In this document: positions 514 through 12,698 of the stretch, piece by piece | Numbering within the stretch: position 1 is the first letter of the stretch | How the letters are laid out: the number at the start of each line of letters is the position of its first letter | NCBI GenBank assembly: GCA_025454955.1 | Contig: JALONL010000003.1 | Span: 271,426 to 335,425, forward strand | Source of the DNA: Bacteroidia bacterium | GTDB taxonomy: Bacteria; Bacteroidota; Bacteroidia; Palsa-965 | Reading direction: 5' to 3' | DNA: 64,000 nucleotides | The notes under the pieces: model-generated | Database searches by the model: none | What the model was told of the DNA's origin: nothing | What the model saw: only the letters and a program-made list of their open reading frames with translations | Position numbers and translations under genes: made by a program

Positions 514-1218
514 TTGATTATGAAAAAAGTTTTACTCCTCTTTTGGGCTGCATTTATACCGTATTTCATTTATGGAAATCCTATGAAGGGAAAATTGCCT
601 ATTCGCTTTGAAATTGGCATAATTCCGGTAAATGTGAATAGTGGTTACCGGCAAAATCTGTATAATAATCCTGTCGAGTATTTCGATGCGGTCTATGTCA
701 AATTACATTATAATAAATTTATTATACGTGCTTCGGCTGCCTATACAAGATCTCTCTGGCATTACCCTTTTCATGATTCCGAAGGGATTATTACAAGAAG
801 TGGTTTTTATAGAATAGGTGCGGGTATTCAAAAACGACTGAAAGTATCTGACGATTACTCCCGCTTTTTTGTTTTTGCGGATATGAATTATAAGCAATGG
901 GCCGGGACTGGATTTTATACTGGTAATCATGTTTTTAATACAACTTCCATCATAATGAACCGTGATTCGAAAGGCGTGGAAGTTTTGCCCGGATGTGGTA
1001 TAAATTTCCGGCTGGGAAACTGGGCACAGCTATGTGTGGAAACAGGCGTAAATATGCTGTTTGTAAGCAATAAATACACTTATCCCTTCGTGGATAACCT
1101 GCTTTTTTATCGCCCCTGCAATCATCATCAGTTTGCTGCCGGTTTTTTTCTCAGGGCTGGTTTTGCGCTGGTTCGGGTTCGCAAAGCAGCCGGGCAGGCG
1201 GTTGGCCGCGATTTCTGA
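514..1218 (+). CDS. Hypothetical secreted or outer-membrane protein
   Basis: 234-aa ORF with an N-terminal hydrophobic segment (MIMKKVLLLFWAAFIPYFIYG). It is rich in Tyr/Gly/Asn and ends in Phe, as outer-membrane beta-barrel proteins often do. No family was recognised. Confidence 0.45.
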   Translation: MIMKKVLLLFWAAFIPYFIYGNPMKGKLPIRFEIGIIPVNVNSGYRQNLYNNPVEYFDAVYVKLHYNKFIIRASAAYTRSLWHYPFHDSEGIITRSGFYRIGAGIQKRLKVSDDYSRFFVFADMNYKQWAGTGFYTGNHVFNTTSIIMNRDSKGVEVLPGCGINFRLGNWAQLCVETGVNMLFVSNKYTYPFVDNLLFYRPCNHHQFAAGFFLRAGFALVRVRKAAGQAVGRDF

Positions 1219-4899: not shown

Positions 4900-4980
4900 T
4901 TCTGCTTGGTAAATATACGCAGACCGGCCCTGCTTTAGTGTGGCTGAACCGGTCTGCGGTATTAACGGCTTTGTAAGTGG

Positions 4981-6378
4981 TTATTTGAGCGAGCCGGTCA
5001 TGTCTTCGGGGCGCACCCACTCGTCGAATTGTTCGGGAGTGAGGTAGCCTGTTTCCACGGCGGCGGCTTTCAGTGTTTTGCCTTCCTTGTGTGCTTTCTT
5101 GGCAATTTCGGCGGCTTTGTAGTAGCCAATGTGCGGGTTGAGTGCGGTAACCAGCATGAGCGAATTTTCGAGATGCTGTTTAATTACCGGTTCGTTGGCG
5201 GCAATGCCGTCGGCACATTTTTCGGTAAACGATACGCAGGCATCGCCAATGAGGCGGGCACTCTGCAGCACGTTGGCGGCAATGAGCGGCTTAAACACGT
5301 TGAGTTCGAAATGTCCGTTTGAACCGCCAATGCTCACGGCCACGTCGTTGCCCATTACCTGGGCGCAAACCATGGTGAGGGCTTCGGGCTGTGTGGGATT
5401 TACTTTGCCGGGCATAATGGATGAGCCGGGCTCGTTGTCGGGGATAATGATTTCGCCAATGCCGCAGCGCGGGCCGGAGCTTAACATGCGTATGTCGTTG
5501 GCAATTTTCATGAGCGACACGGCTGCGCGTTTAAGTGCGCCCGAGAGTTCCACCATGGCATCGTGTGCAGCCAGTGCTTCGAATTTGTTGGGGGCCGTTA
5601 CAAACGGCAGGCCGGTAAATTCGGCAATTTTTTTGGCCACCAGCACATCGTAGCCCGCGGGTGTGTTAAGGCCTGTGCCTACGGCGGTGCCGCCCAGCGC
5701 AAGTTCGCGCACCATTTCCAGCGCATTGCGCACGGCGCGCATGCTGTTGTCCAGTTGCTGCACGTAGCCGCCAAACTCCTGACCTAATGTAAGCGGCGTG
5801 GCATCCATAAAGTGGGTGCGGCCGGTTTTTACAATAGTGGCAAACTCCGCAGCCTTTTTGGCCAAACTGTCGCGCAGGCGCTGTATGCCCGGCAGCGTAA
5901 CCTCTGTGGTGAGCTTGTAGGCCGCAATGTGCATGGCCGTGGGGTAAGTATCGTTCGACGATTGCGACTTGTTTACATCGTCGTTCGGGTTCAGTGCCTT
6001 TTTCTCGTCGGTAAGCTGCCCGCCGCTTATTACGTGGCCGCGGTAGGCAATTACTTCGTTGGCGTTCATGTTGCTCTGTGTGCCCGAGCCGGTTTGCCAG
6101 ATTACCAGCGGAAATTGCTCGTCGAGTTTGCCCGCCAGAATTTCGTCGCACACCTGCGAAATGAGGTCGCGCTTGGCTGCTTCCAATACGCCGAGGTCGT
6201 GGTTGGCGTGTGCGGCTGCTTTCTTCAGGTAAGCGAAAGCGTAGATGATTTCTTTGGGCATACTGGCCTCAGGGCCAATGCGGAAGTTGTTGCGCGAGCG
6301 TTCGGTTTGTGCGCCCCAGTATTTATCGGCGGGTACCTGTACCTCGCCCATGGTGTCTTTTTCTATGCGGTAGTTCAT
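4981..6378 (-). CDS. fumC: Fumarate hydratase, class II
   Basis: Canonical fumarase/aspartase family signature [13 protein letters not shown], and an N-terminus [28 protein letters not shown] typical of FumC. Confidence 0.95.
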
Positions 6379-6394
6379 TGGTGGATGATTGTTT

Positions 6395-6997
6395 TTATGC
6401 GATGTTTTTTATCCGGTGTTCAAATTGAGCCACAAATTCGGCGAAGAACCGAACCTGCAGGAGTTTCTGGAAGTTGATGGTGGTGAAAAGTCTGGGACAG
6501 TCAATTGGTCTGTATCCACACTCAGAAATGAGTAGTTCTTTTGGCTCTTTTCTGTGCATAGGATCTGTAGGATCGTCGCTTGAATTTGGATAGATGAAAC
6601 TTGTATTGTAAAAGTTGTTTACACAATCTGTATCAGCGAGTAAAAGTGTTTCCATTTCAAAAATACAGATCAGGTAGGTCACATTTTGTCCTATTGCATT
6701 ACCTAGTTTGTATATCCTGTTCAGTCTTTCTTCTAATTCAGGTTCATTTTCCAGTGCATCTGAATCACGGATATATACAACAAAGTCTGGTTGTTCAGAT
6801 ATATATTCTCTCTTTAGTTGGTTTAGTACTACTGTTTCCTTTTCACTTAAATTATGCAAATCAACATTATCTAAATTACCCCCTTTAAAGTTTGTAATGA
6901 GTGATTTATACTCAATGTGGTTAGGGTACTGCCTCTTAAACAAATTAATAAATGCCTGAGTGTCGTTTGGCGACTCTCCAATTAACCCAATTTTCAT
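6395..6997 (-). CDS. Small TOPRIM-like protein (DUF4276-like or OLD-family nuclease-like partner) of the adjacent ATPase
   Basis: 200 aa. It has a conserved acidic pattern of an E in [12 protein letters not shown] followed by a DxD in [11 protein letters not shown], plus a later [11 protein letters not shown] segment, which is compatible with a TOPRIM fold. Its start overlaps the upstream ATPase stop by 4 bp (6994-6997). The module is AT-rich. Confidence 0.55.
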
Positions 6998-8181
6998 TGC
7001 TGTATGCTGTTTAAATCGGAGTGTGTCCAGTAAAGACTTAAATAACCTACATCCTCTAGATAGCCGATAGCTTTTTCCCTTTGCTTTTCAGAAAGGTGGT
7101 TGAATGTGGTACCTTTTTCGTTATTGAAAGAACAGATAATGATGCTGTCTAAGTCGTCTTTTTCTAAAATGTCTAAAGCAACTGGTGAATGGGTGGTAAT
7201 AATTATTTGTTTGTTTCTTGCTTCTTCTTGAAGGAGAAGCATTAATTGATAGAGTTGGTTTGGGTGAATTCCCAATTCAGGTTCTTCAATAATAATTGTG
7301 GTGTCTCGTGTTTTTGATTTATTCGTTTCCGTTCTCTTTCCATCAATTGGCCATAATTCGTCATTGTCAAATAATGAAAAGAAAATTATTACTAGTCTCT
7401 TGGTTCCATCCGAAAGTTGGTTAAAAGAGTTCCATCGGTTGTTTTGGAAGAACTCAAAGTATAAATTAGAGACGGTTAAAGTAAAGTCTTTTAAAGAAAA
7501 TTCGACAGAAAAGTTCTTTGAAATTCGTATGTCTGAAAATGGAGCGTAATTGATTTTACGCTTTATAGCTGATATATATTGTTCAATAGTTTTTGTCCAA
7601 ACAGATGCTAAATTGTCAATATCAAAAAGGTTTTTATGATTTGATGCAATTCCATATTTCAAGAAAAAAGCAAAATATGTCTCATGTGGAGCAATTGATA
7701 ACAGTTGTAAGATGTGTGTATCTGATTGTTCGAGCGGGATCTGAATAGAATTATTTACGGGCGCGTCCAGAAAAAGACTTCCGCTCGGTATACCATGAGG
7801 GATGATTTCATGAAATGGGAATACTTCCTCTTTCCCATAATACGCTGCTCTAAAGTCTCTTAGAATTGTTAACTTGATATTACTCGATAATAATCCGGTT
7901 AAAGAATATTCTGTATATGGTTGCTCTTGAACGTTGTGGTTATTGTTTGAATCAATAATGTTCTCTGCTAACAAATTAAGTCCATTGAAAAAAGAAATTT
8001 GGGCATTGAATTTATCATATCCACCATTTTGAGTTATCGATAATACTTCATTCAATATCTCCACAAAATTCGTCTTCCCACTCCCATTCTCCCCAATAAT
8101 AATATTCAACCCCGGCTTAAACGAAACCGAAGCATCCTTAATGGTCTTGTAATTCTTTACGTTAACTGATGATATAGGCAT
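6994..8181 (-). CDS. ABC-type AAA ATPase (AAA_15/AAA_21-like, the ATPase component found in OLD, PARIS and AbiL-class systems)
   Basis: Walker A IIGENGSGKTNF; Walker B/D-loop TTIIIEEPELGIHP; H-loop-like IITTHSP. The region is AT-rich compared with its flanks. Confidence 0.8.
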   Translation of the reverse strand: MPISSVNVKNYKTIKDASVSFKPGLNIIIGENGSGKTNFVEILNEVLSITQNGGYDKFNAQISFFNGLNLLAENIIDSNNNHNVQEQPYTEYSLTGLLSSNIKLTILRDFRAAYYGKEEVFPFHEIIPHGIPSGSLFLDAPVNNSIQIPLEQSDTHILQLLSIAPHETYFAFFLKYGIASNHKNLFDIDNLASVWTKTIEQYISAIKRKINYAPFSDIRISKNFSVEFSLKDFTLTVSNLYFEFFQNNRWNSFNQLSDGTKRLVIIFFSLFDNDELWPIDGKRTETNKSKTRDTTIIIEEPELGIHPNQLYQLMLLLQEEARNKQIIITTHSPVALDILEKDDLDSIIICSFNNEKGTTFNHLSEKQREKAIGYLEDVGYLSLYWTHSDLNSIQQ

Positions 8182-8193
8182 AGCAAAGTAAAG

Positions 8194-8547
8194 TTAGAAT
8201 AAACTCATTACATTTTCCACCGGCCGCCCAATCACCGCCTTCTTCCCCTTCACCACAATAGGCCGCTCAATCAGCACCGGAAATTTCACCAGCACCTTCA
8301 CCCACTGCTTCTCCGTCATTTTCTTCCCCGCAAACTTCTCCTTAAACAACGGCTCCTTGGTACGCACAAGTTCTGCCGCAGAAATATTCAGTTTCTGCAG
8401 CAGATCATTGAGCATGTCTTCGGTAAGGGTATCGGTGAGGTAATTAATTACCGTCACTTCGGCGTGCTGCTCATCCAGCACGCACATCGCTTCGCGGCTT
8501 TTTGCGCAGCGGTTGTTGTGCCAGATGGTTATTTTAGCTTTGCCCAT
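8194..8547 (-). CDS. ArsC/Spx-family protein (arsenate-reductase-like, YffB type)
   Basis: 117 aa. The N-terminal redox-motif context ITIWHNNRCAKSREAMCVL is typical of the ArsC family. Confidence 0.7.
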   Translation of the reverse strand: MGKAKITIWHNNRCAKSREAMCVLDEQHAEVTVINYLTDTLTEDMLNDLLQKLNISAAELVRTKEPLFKEKFAGKKMTEKQWVKVLVKFPVLIERPIVVKGKKAVIGRPVENVMSLF

Positions 8548-8548
8548 T

Positions 8549-9668
8549 TTACTTCTTGTCGGGAGCCAGTTCGGTGTTCCAGCTTGCGCCGTACTCCATC
8601 AGGTAGGCTTTAATGAAGTCGTTCAGGTTGCCGTCAAGCACGCCCTGCGCGTCAGACGTCTCGTAGTCGGTGCGCAGGTCTTTTACCAGTTTGTACGGGT
8701 GCAGCACGTAGTTGCGTATCTGCGATCCCCATTCAATCTTCTTCATCGTGCCGCGTATGGCCTGGGTCGATTCCATGCGCTTGCGCATCTCTATTTCGTA
8801 AAGCTGCGATTTGAGCAGGCGTATGGCATTGTCGCGGTTGGTGTGCTGCGAACGCGATTCCTGGTTTTTGATAATAATGCCGGTGGGCTTGTGATACAAA
8901 CGTACCGCGGTTTCCACCTTGTTTACGTTCTGTCCGCCCGCACCGCCCGAGCGGAAAGTTTCCCATTCGCAGTCGGCCGGGTTCACTTCTATGTCAATGG
9001 TATCGTCAATAAGCGGATAGCAGTACACCGAAGAAAACGAAGTATGTCGGCGCGCATTCGAGTCAAACGGCGAAATGCGCACAAGGCGGTGTACACCGTT
9101 TTCGCCTTTCAGGTAGCCAAAAGCGTTTTCGCCTTCAAACTCCAGCGTAACCGATTTTACACCGGCCGTTTCGCCTTCCTGCATATCGGCTTCCTTCACC
9201 TTCATGCCGTTCTTCTCGCCCCACATAATGTACATGCGCATGAGCATCGAAGTCCAGTCCTGGCTTTCGGTACCGCCTGCGCCCGAGTTTATGGTGAGCA
9301 CGGCATTCAGGTGATCTTCGCGGCCGCTGAGCATGTTGCGGAATTCAAGGTCTTCAATTTTTGTAACAGTTTCCGCAAACTGCGCGTCCAGATCAGCTTC
9401 GCTCGCATCGCCCGCCTTGAAAAACTCGAACATCACGTTCATGTCTTCCACAGCAGCATCCAACTGTGCGAAGGCTTCCGTCCAATTCTTTTTCTTCTTG
9501 ATTTCTTTCAGCAGCGCCTCGGCCTGCTTGGGATCGTCCCAAAACCCGGCGGCCTGACTTACAGCCTCTTCTTCGGCTATTTTCAACAGTTTCCCGTCGA
9601 TGTCAAAGATGCCTCCTTAACGCATCCCGACGCCCGGCTAATTCCTTTATCTGTTCTATTGTAATCAT
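8549..9668 (-). CDS. prfB: Peptide chain release factor 2, with a programmed +1 ribosomal frameshift
   Basis: GGQ motif ([17 protein letters not shown]) and the RF2 family fold. Frame 0 starts at the ATG at 9668-9666 and reads 21 codons ([21 protein letters not shown]) to a TGA at 9605-9603. That TGA sits in the classic recoding site AGGAGG CAT CTT TGA C, and the +1 frame then continues to 8549. Confidence 0.9.
9602..9620 (-). other. prfB: prfB +1 programmed frameshift site: an internal Shine-Dalgarno-like AGGAGG, then the CUU UGA C slippery/stop context
   Basis: On the minus strand, 9620 to 9601 reads TTA AGG AGG CAT CTT TGA CA, which is the conserved autoregulatory RF2 recoding motif. Confidence 0.85.
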
Positions 9669-9892: not shown

Positions 9893-11209
9893 TTAGTCGG
9901 CCACCACCATGCGGCGGGTAACACGCTCGCCATTCACGTTAAGTGTGTAGAAATACACACCGGCCTGAAGGTTGTTGGTGTTAAACTCAATCTGGTAAGT
10001 GCCGCGGGCCTGTGTGCCCTGATCGAAGCTCAGAATCTGCTTGCCGGTTACGTCGAAAATGTCGAGCTGTACATCGCCGCCGTTTTCGAGCGAGTAACGG
10101 ATCATGGTTTCGCCGGTGGCCGGGTTGGGTACGTTCTGGGCAAGACCAATGTTGCCCTGCAATTCTTCTTCAATGCCTACGTTGAGCGAGGTCACTTTAT
10201 AAGAAATAAGGTGGTGCTCAAATGCATAGGAGGCATTGGTAAAGGCGTAAGTCGGAATAAAGCGGCCATTCCATGAATTGGGAGGATAAAGGTTGTAGCG
10301 GCCCTGCGTGGTTACTAAGCTCGATACGTTCCAGTCGCACTGCGGGCTCGATGAGTTGGGGCAGTAGTTGTAAATAAGGAATGTACCGGCGCCCTGCTCT
10401 TCGTAGCTGGCAAAGTAAAATGCGTTGAGGTTGGTTACCGTGTCGTTAAGCTGGTAAGTAAAACCAGGCTTGAATGTAATGGACGAACCCACAATTTTAC
10501 CGCCGGGAACCGCAAACTGGTTGGTGCTCCACACTTTTTCGCGGAAGAATGTGGCAGCCGTGTCGGCAGCAGTGAGCGGAATTTTGTAGGTAGCCACGCC
10601 CGAAGCATTAATGGAATTGGTTTGATAATTATAGTTGATGGCTTTGAAATACACCGTATCAAAACCAAAATTGGTAAGCATGGTGGCGCCCGAGAAAAAG
10701 AAAGTGGGCATGTTGGTGTTGTTGGTGTTGTAGAAAAGGTTCACCACCAGTGTGTCCACAATATTCGGGTTCGGGTGGTTGCGCTCGTAGGCATACACCA
10801 GCGCCATGGAGTCAACGGTATAGCTGTTCCAGCTATTCCAGTTAATGCCCGATGTGGATTGGAAAGCATCGGCATTTACATCCAGAACGTTGCCGATGTT
10901 GTTGATCCAGATTGGCTCGTAACTTACCGGGCTGCCAAATTCGCCAAGAATAAGCGAATCCCATCCTAAGTAATTTGAGTTCAGATCAGCTATACCTCCG
11001 TAAACAGAATCCACCGCAAAGCCATAGTTCAGCCAGTAGGTTTCGGTAGTACGGTTGTTGTTTTGCTCAAATTTTTTGGTAAACACTTCGGGTTTATACC
11101 CGGGGCGGTGACTGGGATAGAGCGGTCCGTTTGAATTCTGTAGGGTTTGCGCAGAAATGCTTCCTGCAATACCACATGCAAGTAGAAAGAGGGTAGTTTT
11201 GTTTATCAT
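9893..11209 (-). CDS. Secreted protein with a T9SS type-A C-terminal sorting domain (Por_Secre_tail)
   Basis: Signal peptide MINKTTLFLLACGIAGSISAQ. The C-terminus ...VPNPATGETMIRYSL...DIFDVTGKQI...GVYFYTLNVNGERVTRRMVVAD matches the T9SS CTD pattern. It is a paralog of the 11451-12698 product. Confidence 0.8.
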   Translation of the reverse strand: MINKTTLFLLACGIAGSISAQTLQNSNGPLYPSHRPGYKPEVFTKKFEQNNNRTTETYWLNYGFAVDSVYGGIADLNSNYLGWDSLILGEFGSPVSYEPIWINNIGNVLDVNADAFQSTSGINWNSWNSYTVDSMALVYAYERNHPNPNIVDTLVVNLFYNTNNTNMPTFFFSGATMLTNFGFDTVYFKAINYNYQTNSINASGVATYKIPLTAADTAATFFREKVWSTNQFAVPGGKIVGSSITFKPGFTYQLNDTVTNLNAFYFASYEEQGAGTFLIYNYCPNSSSPQCDWNVSSLVTTQGRYNLYPPNSWNGRFIPTYAFTNASYAFEHHLISYKVTSLNVGIEEELQGNIGLAQNVPNPATGETMIRYSLENGGDVQLDIFDVTGKQILSFDQGTQARGTYQIEFNTNNLQAGVYFYTLNVNGERVTRRMVVAD

Positions 11210-11450: not shown

Positions 11451-12698
11451 ATGAAAAAAATTTACATGCTTGCTCTGGCAGGCCTCGCCACTGTGACAGT
11501 TAATGCTCAGCGTGCCGGCAACCAGGTTTCCGCACCCCGCACGGTAAACAATCCCCAGCTCCGCACCGAGCAGACAACCCGTTTCCGCGCTCAAATGACC
11601 GAAGACAACCGCGCCTCTTACTGGCTGTGCTACGCCCTCCAGTTGGATGATGCCAATGGCCCTTCTGCCGGTCTGGCCGTAGGCGATTACATGCTCATTT
11701 TCCCCGATTCAAACATTATCATCGGTCAGTTCACCACCGGCGAAACTGCTTACCCGCAGTTCCACAAAGGTGCTACCATGCTCGACCCCAAGAACATGCC
11801 TGTTCAGGGTATCGCCGCTACAACTCCCTATCTGCTCGATTCAGTAGGTATCGTTTACGCTTACCTGCGTAACACCGCTTCTACCGTAACTGATACCCTG
11901 CAGGTTCAGATCATCCGCAACGATGCTTCACTGCTGTGGGATCTTACTAATGCCACCTATCAGGACATTACCTACATCCACACCAACAACACGATCACTG
12001 CTTCGCAGGTACTGGCTACCTACAACATTCCCCTCACCGAAAGCGACAGCTCTAACTTCCCCGCCGAAATCTTCATCAACACTTCAAACGTGCCCCAGCA
12101 GGCTGCCGGCAACCGTATTGGCGTGGTGGTAAGCTACAAGCCCGGTTACACCTACACCGCTACCGACTCAATCCAGCAGAAAAACTCTTTCTATATGTTC
12201 TCTTATGAGAACAATGGTGCTGCTACCGATCCTACATTCTACGGTACCATCAGTGACGGCACTTCAGACATGAACTGCTCGTACTCGCTGCCCGTAACTG
12301 TTCGTTACAACTTCAACCCCAACGGCTGGAATGGTTATTTCATTCCCACCTGGGCTTATACCACCGCTTATACATACGAGAACCACATTATCGAGTTCAA
12401 AGTATCAGAAGTAGTAGGTATTGAAGAAGCCAACCTCGGTCTTTCTGCCAGCACCTGGCCCAACCCGGCTAACAACGAAATCTTCGTGGCCTACACCCTG
12501 AAAAACGATGCCGACGTAACCATCGAAGTTACCGACCTCACCGGCCGCGTGGTAATGAGCCAGCGCGAAGGCGATCGTGGCCAGGGCGAGTACCGTGTTG
12601 CCCTCAACACCGAAAACCTTGCCGAAGGCACCTACCTCGTTAACGTGCGCACCGAAGGTGCTGCCAAAGTATCTTCTAAAATCGTTGTGAAGCACTAA
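11451..12698 (+). CDS. Secreted protein with a T9SS type-A C-terminal sorting domain
   Basis: Signal peptide MKKIYMLALAGLATVTVNAQ and C-terminus WPNPANNEIFVAYTL...VTDLTGRVV...GTYLVNVRTEGAAKVSSKIVVKH. It shares motifs with the divergent neighbour, for example YNIPLTESD against YKIPLTAAD and GWNGYFIPTWAYT against WNGRFIPTYAFT. Confidence 0.8.
   Translation: MKKIYMLALAGLATVTVNAQRAGNQVSAPRTVNNPQLRTEQTTRFRAQMTEDNRASYWLCYALQLDDANGPSAGLAVGDYMLIFPDSNIIIGQFTTGETAYPQFHKGATMLDPKNMPVQGIAATTPYLLDSVGIVYAYLRNTASTVTDTLQVQIIRNDASLLWDLTNATYQDITYIHTNNTITASQVLATYNIPLTESDSSNFPAEIFINTSNVPQQAAGNRIGVVVSYKPGYTYTATDSIQQKNSFYMFSYENNGAATDPTFYGTISDGTSDMNCSYSLPVTVRYNFNPNGWNGYFIPTWAYTTAYTYENHIIEFKVSEVVGIEEANLGLSASTWPNPANNEIFVAYTLKNDADVTIEVTDLTGRVVMSQREGDRGQGEYRVALNTENLAEGTYLVNVRTEGAAKVSSKIVVKH

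Follow-up and report, generated by a model that had tools for sequence, protein, structure and literature searches.

HEC-01 is a catalogued candidate antiphage system in which an ABC ATPase is paired with a Toprim protein, and its smaller component HEC-01B carries an OLD-like metal site (Payne et al., bioRxiv 10.1101/2024.01.29.577857). The same authors found that HEC-01 gave no protection in E. coli, while in a cold-seep study one representative of HEC-01 was reported to shield E. coli from at least one of T4, T5 and T7. The DUF4276 family has been assigned to Toprim and equated with the Mad4 family (PMC12065111). In MADS, the system to which Mad4 belongs, defence is lost in knockouts of mad3, which encodes the ATPase, and of mad4, and the methylase gene mad5 can be deleted only together with mad2 or mad3. 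The PARIS paper placed DUF4276-associated ATPases in the tree of AAA15/21 defence ATPases, and in PARIS itself a tRNA-cleaving Toprim nuclease is set free from a scaffold formed by the ATPase. In the present study we analyse a gene pair of this general architecture, ORF A and ORF B (ORF, open reading frame), which lies between an arsC-family gene and fumC in a window of 64,000 nucleotides (by the window we mean the whole stretch of DNA analysed; contig JALONL010000003.1, positions 271,426 to 335,425) from a Bacteroidia bacterium.

Our preferred interpretation, which we hold with moderate confidence, is that the pair is a two-gene conflict module of the HEC-01/Mad3-Mad4 kind, inserted once and long ago at the arsC/fumC junction, and that whole cassettes have since been exchanged between relatives. 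An initial annotation of the same DNA had described the pair as an uncharacterised antiphage candidate of the OLD/PARIS/AbiL class. Its account of the genes and their motifs stood up for the most part; its claim of novelty, and with it the reading as a recent transfer, did not, as detailed below.

An ABC ATPase paired with a divergent DUF4276 protein

Both reading frames were confirmed on the minus strand at the positions first proposed, ORF A at 6994..8181 (395 amino acids) and ORF B at 6395..6997 (200 amino acids), with an overlap of 4 base pairs (bp; 6994-6997). A spacer of 16 bp separates the ORF B stop from the start of fumC and one of 12 bp the stop of the arsC-family gene from the start of ORF A. 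The arsC-family gene lies 1 bp downstream of prfB, which gives a same-strand run in the order prfB-arsC-ATPase-ORF B-fumC; overlap, spacers and setting are those of the initial annotation. The AT-richness that had been judged by eye was likewise confirmed. In sliding windows the guanine plus cytosine (GC) content is 0.32-0.35 inside the pair vs 0.51-0.58 on either side, and GC together with GC at third codon positions (GC3) is 0.34/0.33 for the ATPase gene and 0.36/0.35 for ORF B as against 0.56/0.67 for fumC, 0.50/0.66 for arsC and 0.53/0.67 for prfB.

ORF A is an ABC ATPase with an SMC/Rad50/PtuA-like head. It passes the Pfam cut-offs of the AAA_15 and AAA_21 group (AAA_15, 94.3 bits, E value 1.5e-26, cut-off 32.1; AAA_21, 82.6 bits, 6.8e-23, cut-off 27) and matches SMC_N at 1.8e-10. 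All nucleotide-binding motifs are intact and invariant in an alignment of 67 homologues, those quoted in the initial annotation among them. These are the Walker A loop GENGSGKTN (residues 30-38, 8068..8094, minus strand; G30, N32, G35 and K36 invariant), the ABC signature L256-S257-x-G259, the Walker B motif with its catalytic acid, EEPE (residues 299-302, 7276..7287, minus strand; E299, E300, P301 and E302 invariant), and H331 of the H-loop. The first Walker B acid in this clade is Glu, where related defence ATPases such as OLD, AriA and GajA usually have Asp (DEPE). The AlphaFold model of ORF A, built from the 67-homologue alignment, reached a pLDDT (score in the predicted local distance difference test) of 87.5. 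When this model was compared with the PDB by Foldseek, PtuA of Septu and type I-A retrons came out best, followed by Rad50 and SMC heads (E 1e-14 to 1e-12, probability 1.00, TM-scores of about 0.5). By sequence the best PDB match is the OLD ATPase, and the matches of solved structures are confined to the surroundings of the motifs. Among the PADLOC models AriA (1.5e-26), PDC-M07A (5.7e-26) and HEC-01A (3.3e-25) score highly on ORF A, the HEC-01A models as a group spanning E 3e-25 to 1e-16. It should be noted that the PADLOC comparison consists of model scores.

For the small partner the initial annotation had guessed DUF4276, and this guess is supported by its relatives. PF14103 (DUF4276) is matched by eight of the ten closest ORF B homologues (best E 6e-6), the HEC-01B models are matched by all ten close homologues, and a profile built from ten close homologues retrieves PF14103 or 'DUF4276 family protein' entries with E values of 1e-40 to 1e-21, the matches spanning about 97% of the length. 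Since the homologues match DUF4276 and HEC-01B, and the profile retrieves DUF4276 proteins, ORF B is on these sequence relationships a divergent DUF4276 protein, HEC-01B-like and of the Mad4 family. None of the Pfam families DUF4435, RloB (PF13707) and Toprim_OLD matches it, DUF4435 not even at E <= 1.

The polar residues of ORF B that are invariant among 37 homologues are E8, R77, D78, D80 and E116. In the predicted structure (pLDDT 93.1) Glu8 (6974..6976, minus strand) directly follows strand 1 (residues 2-7), at the position of the Toprim catalytic Glu; D78-S-D80 (6758..6766, minus strand) forms a DxD at the end of strand 3 (residues 72-78), after the invariant R77; and Glu116 (6650..6652, minus strand) comes after strand 4 (residues 106-111). 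This placement agrees with the Toprim arrangement described for DUF4276 (PMC12065111), hence ORF B carries, as read from alignment and model, a Toprim-like E...DxD...E metal-binding pattern and is a predicted nuclease. Of the three acidic motifs named in the initial annotation, the E of GES and the RDSD proved invariant; ADTD held only in part, as D122 is nearly invariant, its second D is not, and it is E116 that never varies in this part of the protein. Among extended structural matches, the C-terminal Toprim region of the OLD nuclease fits ORF B best. A Foldseek search of the model against the PDB returned generic alpha/beta folds only, none at E <= 0.001, and the sequence profile retrieved nothing meaningful from the PDB.

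Comparison with described systems

HEC-01 resembles the pair in having two genes, the ATPase first and then a small partner of about 190-220 amino acids, and its published OLD-like metal site agrees with the site predicted for ORF B. The PADLOC models HEC-01A and HEC-01B are both matched by the adjacent genes, though the HEC-01B matches are weak (E about 1e-5, partial coverage) and AriA and PDC-M07A slightly outscore HEC-01A on ORF A. The two differ in setting: the genes on which HEC-01 was based lay inside Hma systems, and the present pair is locked in a housekeeping operon. In every locus with the pair at this site the neighbours are prfB, arsC, fumC and biosynthetic genes, with no Hma or other defence system adjoining.

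The pair also resembles MADS of Pseudomonas aeruginosa, in which an AAA_15/21-type ATPase stands beside a DUF4276 protein, both Mad3 and Mad4 are required for defence, and the ATPase arm is toxic without its methylase as judged by genetics. MADS, unlike the pair, comprises eight genes, including the methyltransferase Mad5 and the mandatory Mad6-8. The gene tables hold no Mad5-Mad8-type gene within 10 kb of the pair, and the NCBIfam MAD3 model scores 56 bits on ORF A against a cut-off of 420. PARIS shares the split architecture of an ABC ATPase (AriA) and a Toprim protein (AriB), and the AriA model is the top PADLOC match of ORF A; its partner is a DUF4435 protein, however, and ORF B matches neither DUF4435 nor AriB. 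Further, the solved AriA chain has 464 amino acids vs 395 in ORF A, and the match is limited to the Walker B region. In AbiL an ATPase likewise accompanies a small Toprim-like protein, and ORF A matches the AbiLi model at 7e-21, but the partner AbiLii is of the RloB type and ORF B has no RloB (PF13707) or AbiLii match. OLD and Gabija GajA contain the same two catalytic modules fused in one chain, whereas here they lie in two reading frames, there is no Toprim_OLD match, and the gene table shows no GajB-like helicase beside the pair. Membership of PARIS, AbiL, OLD/Gabija and MADS was rejected because the defining partner domains, fusion or accessory genes are absent.

PtuAB of Septu and type I-A retrons is comparable in that the ABC ATPase PtuA controls a small nuclease partner, and PtuA is the closest solved fold to ORF A (E about 1e-14). 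PtuB differs from ORF B in being an HNH nuclease, not a Toprim protein, and the likeness of PtuA to ORF A is distant (TM about 0.5, identity 13-18%, NCBIfam PtuA 54 bits against a cut-off of 500).

The class named by the initial annotation, OLD/PARIS/AbiL, was thus right in that the closest analogues are ATPase-plus-nuclease antiphage systems, and wrong as to membership, since DUF4435, RloB and Toprim_OLD are not matched. By its sequence matches the pair probably belongs to a catalogued candidate antiphage type, HEC-01, related to Mad3/Mad4, as a divergent member. It is not undescribed, as this pairing is a PADLOC candidate that has been assayed twice and DUF4276 is the Mad4 family.

One detail of the model set may be of use to others. 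The PADLOC model PDLC04143, labelled HEC-01A, matches the small Toprim-like protein in four of ten family members (best E 0.001); its label may be wrong, or the model may have been built on a gene that was fused or incorrectly split.

An old insertion fixed in one lineage

We compared the window contig with the contigs of ORF B homologues at 69, 57, 54, 51, 42, 38, 36 and 36% identity. In all nine loci, i.e. for every homologue of at least 36% identity that was checked, the order prfB-arsC-ATPase-ORF B-fumC is kept on one strand, the gaps around the pair are -4 to 43 bp, and the genes farther out vary (these loci and their alleles are referred to as locked below). The genomes with the locked site have diverged as far as 87-92% identity in FumC and 36-67% in ArsC. 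Throughout the family the ATPase and ORF B are always adjacent, in the same order and on the same strand. Fifteen distant metagenomic loci have no arsC, prfB or fumC nearby, and a homologous ATPase lies directly upstream in all 14 of the distant loci that include upstream DNA.

Beyond these come homologues of 34% identity that match DUF4276 in full and lie elsewhere than between arsC and fumC. Of the nearest pairs from outside the lineage, one (L110) stands beside a HicA/HicB-like pair and a PIF1-family helicase (6259-6682 of that contig), and the other, in Hymenobacter seoulensis (L112), has a tyrosine integrase on one side and a resolvase on the other and adjoins mutS (5290-6543 and 8598-9179). 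These contexts suggest a mobile pool from which the locked cassette came.

The initial annotation had asked whether relatives exist in which arsC is directly next to fumC, and such loci were found. A FumC-based scan of species-representative genomes gave 80 Bacteroidota loci among the matches listed, none with the pair; among these same listed matches none was closer than 87% identity, so that they represent empty-site outgroups only and no further members of the lineage. An exact-match look-up of the window FumC found only contigs of the same organism. L028 has an empty prfB-arsC-fumC junction of 17 bp, and in L020, L077 and L059 the empty junction is 229-308 bp long. From these junctions in other Bacteroidota it follows that the pair was inserted into a gene order that existed before it, and the insertion is old and fixed in one Bacteroidia lineage. 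As the locked copies form one clade in our sequence trees (see below), there was probably a single old insertion.

Low GC combined with tight wedging between housekeeping genes had been taken in the initial annotation as the mark of horizontal acquisition, and a recent insertion recognised by foreign AT-rich composition therefore has to be weighed here. Both the GC of the pair (0.34-0.36 vs 0.50-0.56 in the flanks) and the empty arsC/fumC junctions of other Bacteroidota fit such an event. It is difficult to reconcile, however, with the occupation of the same site in nine related genomes as diverged as those above and with the monophyly of the locked alleles. Searches for direct and inverted repeats at the cassette ends, such as att sites or target duplications, gave only short chance matches, and no integrase or tRNA was seen at the cassette borders. 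Composition gives no date either. The GC of the pair is lower than that of the rest of the locus by 0.06-0.22 in 23 of 23 loci (9 locked, 14 elsewhere) whatever the GC of the host, which ranges from 0.34 to 0.68, and GC3 of the pair stays 0.2-0.35 under that of the flanks; low GC is a family-wide trait, and thus does not date the insertion. We hold a recent arrival to be highly improbable. The finding carries a caution for genome scans, as in this DUF4276/ABC ATPase family low GC and tight wedging between housekeeping genes are no sign of recent transfer.

Probable exchange of diverged cassettes between conserved flanks

Neighbour-joining trees with 200 bootstraps group the locked alleles as monophyletic (94%) and divide them into two classes: class I with the window, L003, L006, L007, L008 and L109 (100%) and class II with L011, L107 and L116 (99%). 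The tree of the flanks groups the window with L003, L011 and L107 (100%) and L007 with L116 (100%), so that the allele classes are incongruent with the flank tree twice. In the first of these groups the flanks are close (FumC 97-99%, PrfB 94-98% identical), and in the second they are near-identical (FumC 100%, PrfB 99%). The identity of the pair itself, on the other hand, is only 38-43% for the window and L003 vs L011 and L107, and 41-43% for L007 vs L116. The distance between the classes equals the distance of either class to the mobile outgroups.

Sliding nucleotide identity locates the breakpoints. The upstream breakpoint zone is the last 40-80 nucleotides or so of arsC (8195..8240, minus strand), where identity between the window and L011 drops from 0.94-0.99 to 0.46-0.32, and the drop between L007 and L116 falls at the same position. 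The downstream breakpoint coincides with the stop of ORF B and the 16 bp that separate it from fumC (6379..6400, minus strand); here identity returns from 0.54-0.66 to 0.92-0.96 for the window and L011 and to 0.96-0.98 for L007 and L116. Taken over the whole locus, both genome pairs show 0.92-0.99 through prfB and arsC, 0.3-0.6 across the cassette, and 0.92-0.98 from the ORF B stop onwards. The contrast is also seen in the substitution rates: between the window and L011 arsC has a synonymous divergence (dS) of 0.16, while the ATPase gene has a nonsynonymous divergence (dN) of 0.63 with saturated synonymous sites.

Within the classes, dN/dS for L011 vs L107 is 0.07 in the ATPase and 0.02 in ORF B, and for the window vs L003 it is 0.09 in the ATPase; by this measure both classes are under strong purifying selection (dN/dS 0.02-0.09).

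The nearest allele to that of the window, L003, is itself a mosaic, in which residues 42-132 or so of the ATPase and 22-67 or so of ORF B are far more diverged than the remainder. The hypervariable segment of ORF A (7786..8058, minus strand) corresponds to a beta-rich insert after the Walker A helix and sits between helix 36-47 and strand 122-127 of the AlphaFold model; its nucleotide identity to L003 is 0.63-0.74 vs 0.8-0.99 elsewhere in the gene. In the hypervariable segment of ORF B (6797..6934, minus strand) the identity to L003 is about 0.5, the alignment shows a 6-residue insertion unique to the window protein, and the ORF B model has its lowest confidence (pLDDT 70-80, residues 41-60).

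The simplest account that we can give of these sequence patterns would be a single ancestral insertion, at least two functional allele classes, and swapping of cassettes, entire or in part, through homologous recombination between the conserved flanking genes. Independent re-insertion was considered as a source of the two classes and rejected because the locked alleles are monophyletic (94% bootstrap) and site-specific machinery is absent.

The constancy of the locus raises the question of whether the pair has become a housekeeping one, domesticated either for DNA repair, in the manner of the RecF ABC ATPase and the RecR Toprim protein, or for RNase M5-like RNA processing. Such a role would explain why all genomes of the lineage keep the pair within the prfB-arsC-fumC operon. 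The same position in 9 of 9 genomes, the short gaps (-4 to 19 bp) on one strand with no terminator before the end of fumC, the strong purifying selection (dN/dS 0.02-0.09), and the matches of the ORF A N-terminus to RecF, Rad50 and SMC models are all in keeping with it. But the RecF and Rad50 matches span the P-loop region only, and classes about 40% identical to each other, with sharp breakpoints, in genomes whose FumC and PrfB are 98-100% identical are atypical of housekeeping genes. The persistent GC3 deficit of 0.2-0.35 relative to the flanks and the mobile or defence-type contexts of the closest relatives outside the lineage also speak against domestication, which we consider quite unlikely. 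A conserved context had been named in the initial annotation as an observation that would count against its proposal, along with native GC and a partner that is not Toprim-like; of these, only the conserved context was observed, as the GC departs from that of the host and the partner does resemble Toprim.

A possible mode of action and its uncertainties

If the pair is a conflict module of the HEC-01/Mad3-Mad4 kind, as we prefer to read it, its action may be pictured by analogy with PARIS, Septu, Gabija, OLD and MADS. An oligomer of the ATPase would act as sensor and regulator and hold the Toprim nuclease inactive. A phage-derived signal or nucleic-acid structure detected by the ATPase would be the trigger, and the freed nuclease might then cut DNA or RNA and halt the infection, possibly at the cost of the cell. 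The module would have been acquired by one ancestor of this Bacteroidia lineage at the arsC/fumC junction of the older prfB-arsC-fumC run, and would since have been kept under purifying selection and have diverged into two or more deep allele classes, with related genomes trading whole cassettes via homologous recombination in the flanks that they share. To judge from their variability, the insert that follows Walker A in the ATPase and the stretch of the nuclease between strands 2 and 3 are likely to be specificity or contact surfaces.

Several points weigh against this interpretation. ORF B itself scores below the Pfam gathering threshold for DUF4276 (PF14103; 19.3 vs 30.2 bits, E 0.0014), and its own HEC-01B match is weak (E about 2e-5, residues 10-131 of 200, about 60% coverage). 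The published phage assays of HEC-01 disagree, one having found no protection and one protection. Neither a tblastn search with ORF B for copies in phage or plasmid records nor a scan of IMG/VR found any. Fixation in a housekeeping operon in every sampled genome is unusual for a defence system, as these are normally patchy, and there is no defence island around the pair. Lastly, the trigger and the substrate are proposed by analogy, co-transcription is proposed from the gene spacing and the terminator-like site, and the antiphage role of the subfamily locked between arsC and fumC is putative.

A toxin-antitoxin-like, selfish addiction would be another use for the same two proteins. The Toprim protein would be a toxin restrained by the ATPase, loss of the pair would kill the cell, and replacement by a member of the same family would be the only easy change. 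In its favour, the Pfam annotation of AAA_21 reads 'putative AbiEii toxin, type IV TA system' (TA, toxin-antitoxin), the PDB depositors label AriA 'antitoxin', the ATPase arm of MADS is toxic without its methylase, one of the nearest relatives adjoins a HicAB pair, and every sampled genome has retained the pair. Over such long times, however, addiction does not normally block the simultaneous chromosomal loss of both genes, and by itself it explains neither the maintenance of two deep classes nor the localised hypervariable segments. It is, moreover, compatible with a defence role, as many abortive-infection systems are built that way. As the explanation of this locus we find addiction unlikely.

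Further, we speculate that the locus might be a fixed chromosomal immune locus under long-term balancing selection. An ancient single insertion would have given rise to at least two classes, about 40% identical, that were kept across speciation and traded by recombination in the flanks, with specificity determined by the hypervariable insert of the ATPase and by the part of the Toprim protein between strands 2 and 3. This extension is tentative, and we put it forward as a possibility rather than an expectation; if true, the locus would parallel, in bacteria, the trans-species polymorphism of immunity genes.

As a discovery the pair counts for little, since modules of this type are already on record as HEC-01 and Mad3/Mad4. 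The useful part is the history of the locus, which offers a natural series of variants, two deep classes and mosaics, in identical surroundings and under purifying selection. In view of this series, the variable segments of the ATPase and of the Toprim protein are the obvious ones to exchange in specificity swaps, which could help settle what DUF4276/ABC ATPase pairs sense and cut. The unexpected and moderately interesting result is the combination of a long stay in a core operon with trans-lineage exchange of two deep classes.

Flanking genes and transcription

The first gene of the run is prfB (8549..9668, minus strand), encoding peptide chain release factor 2 (RF2), which was assigned from its reading frame and context and in which a programmed +1 frameshift site can be read from the sequence. 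The ATG start is at 9668-9666, and AGGAGG is followed by CTTTGAC at 9608-9602, all on the minus strand. Because of this frameshift the mechanical list of reading frames places the prfB start at a TTG (9586), and the called product lengths in the related loci vary from 294 to 373 amino acids. The arsC-family gene (8194..8547, minus strand; Pfam ArsC 8.6e-13) is the conserved upstream flank and adjoins the pair in all related loci. The conserved downstream flank is fumC (4981..6378, minus strand), a class II fumarase (Pfam Lyase_1 1.4e-111, FumaraseC_C 1.7e-27), with a terminator-like hairpin 3' of it at 4919-4933.

This hairpin was the only useful site from a scan for sigma-70 promoters and terminators, the counts of which were not above those in shuffled sequence. 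Between 6300 and 9800 the gene strand holds three copies of the Bacteroidetes -7 motif (TAnnTTTG), one of them within ORF B (6665-6658), a number too small to interpret, and an Rfam scan of the window found no RNA family. As the gaps are -4 to 16 bp and the sole terminator-like site lies after fumC, we suggest that the pair is probably co-transcribed with prfB, arsC and fumC.

The FumC comparison also drew attention to three contigs with an unexpected taxonomic label. L012 (JAYRXZ010000009.1), which carries the label Lacunisphaera sp., and L029 and L089, which are listed under Bifidobacteriaceae and Bifidobacterium, encode FumC proteins 72-87% identical to that of the window. These contigs, in metagenome-assembled genomes of Verrucomicrobiota and Actinomycetota, are probably mis-binned.

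Other observations in the window

A second AT-rich stretch was seen at 1-1000 of the window, with GC 0.34-0.38 vs about 0.5-0.59 nearby. It covers the start of an ORF at 514..1218 (plus strand) for a hypothetical protein of 234 amino acids whose N-terminus resembles a signal peptide and for which no Pfam family is recorded, and the equivalent region differs among related genomes. Upstream of prfB, 9893-11209 (minus strand) and 11451-12698 (plus strand) are divergent paralogues with type IX secretion C-terminal sorting domains (Por_Secre_tail). These paralogues are kept in that position in the closest relatives, L003 and L011, and not in the more distant ones.

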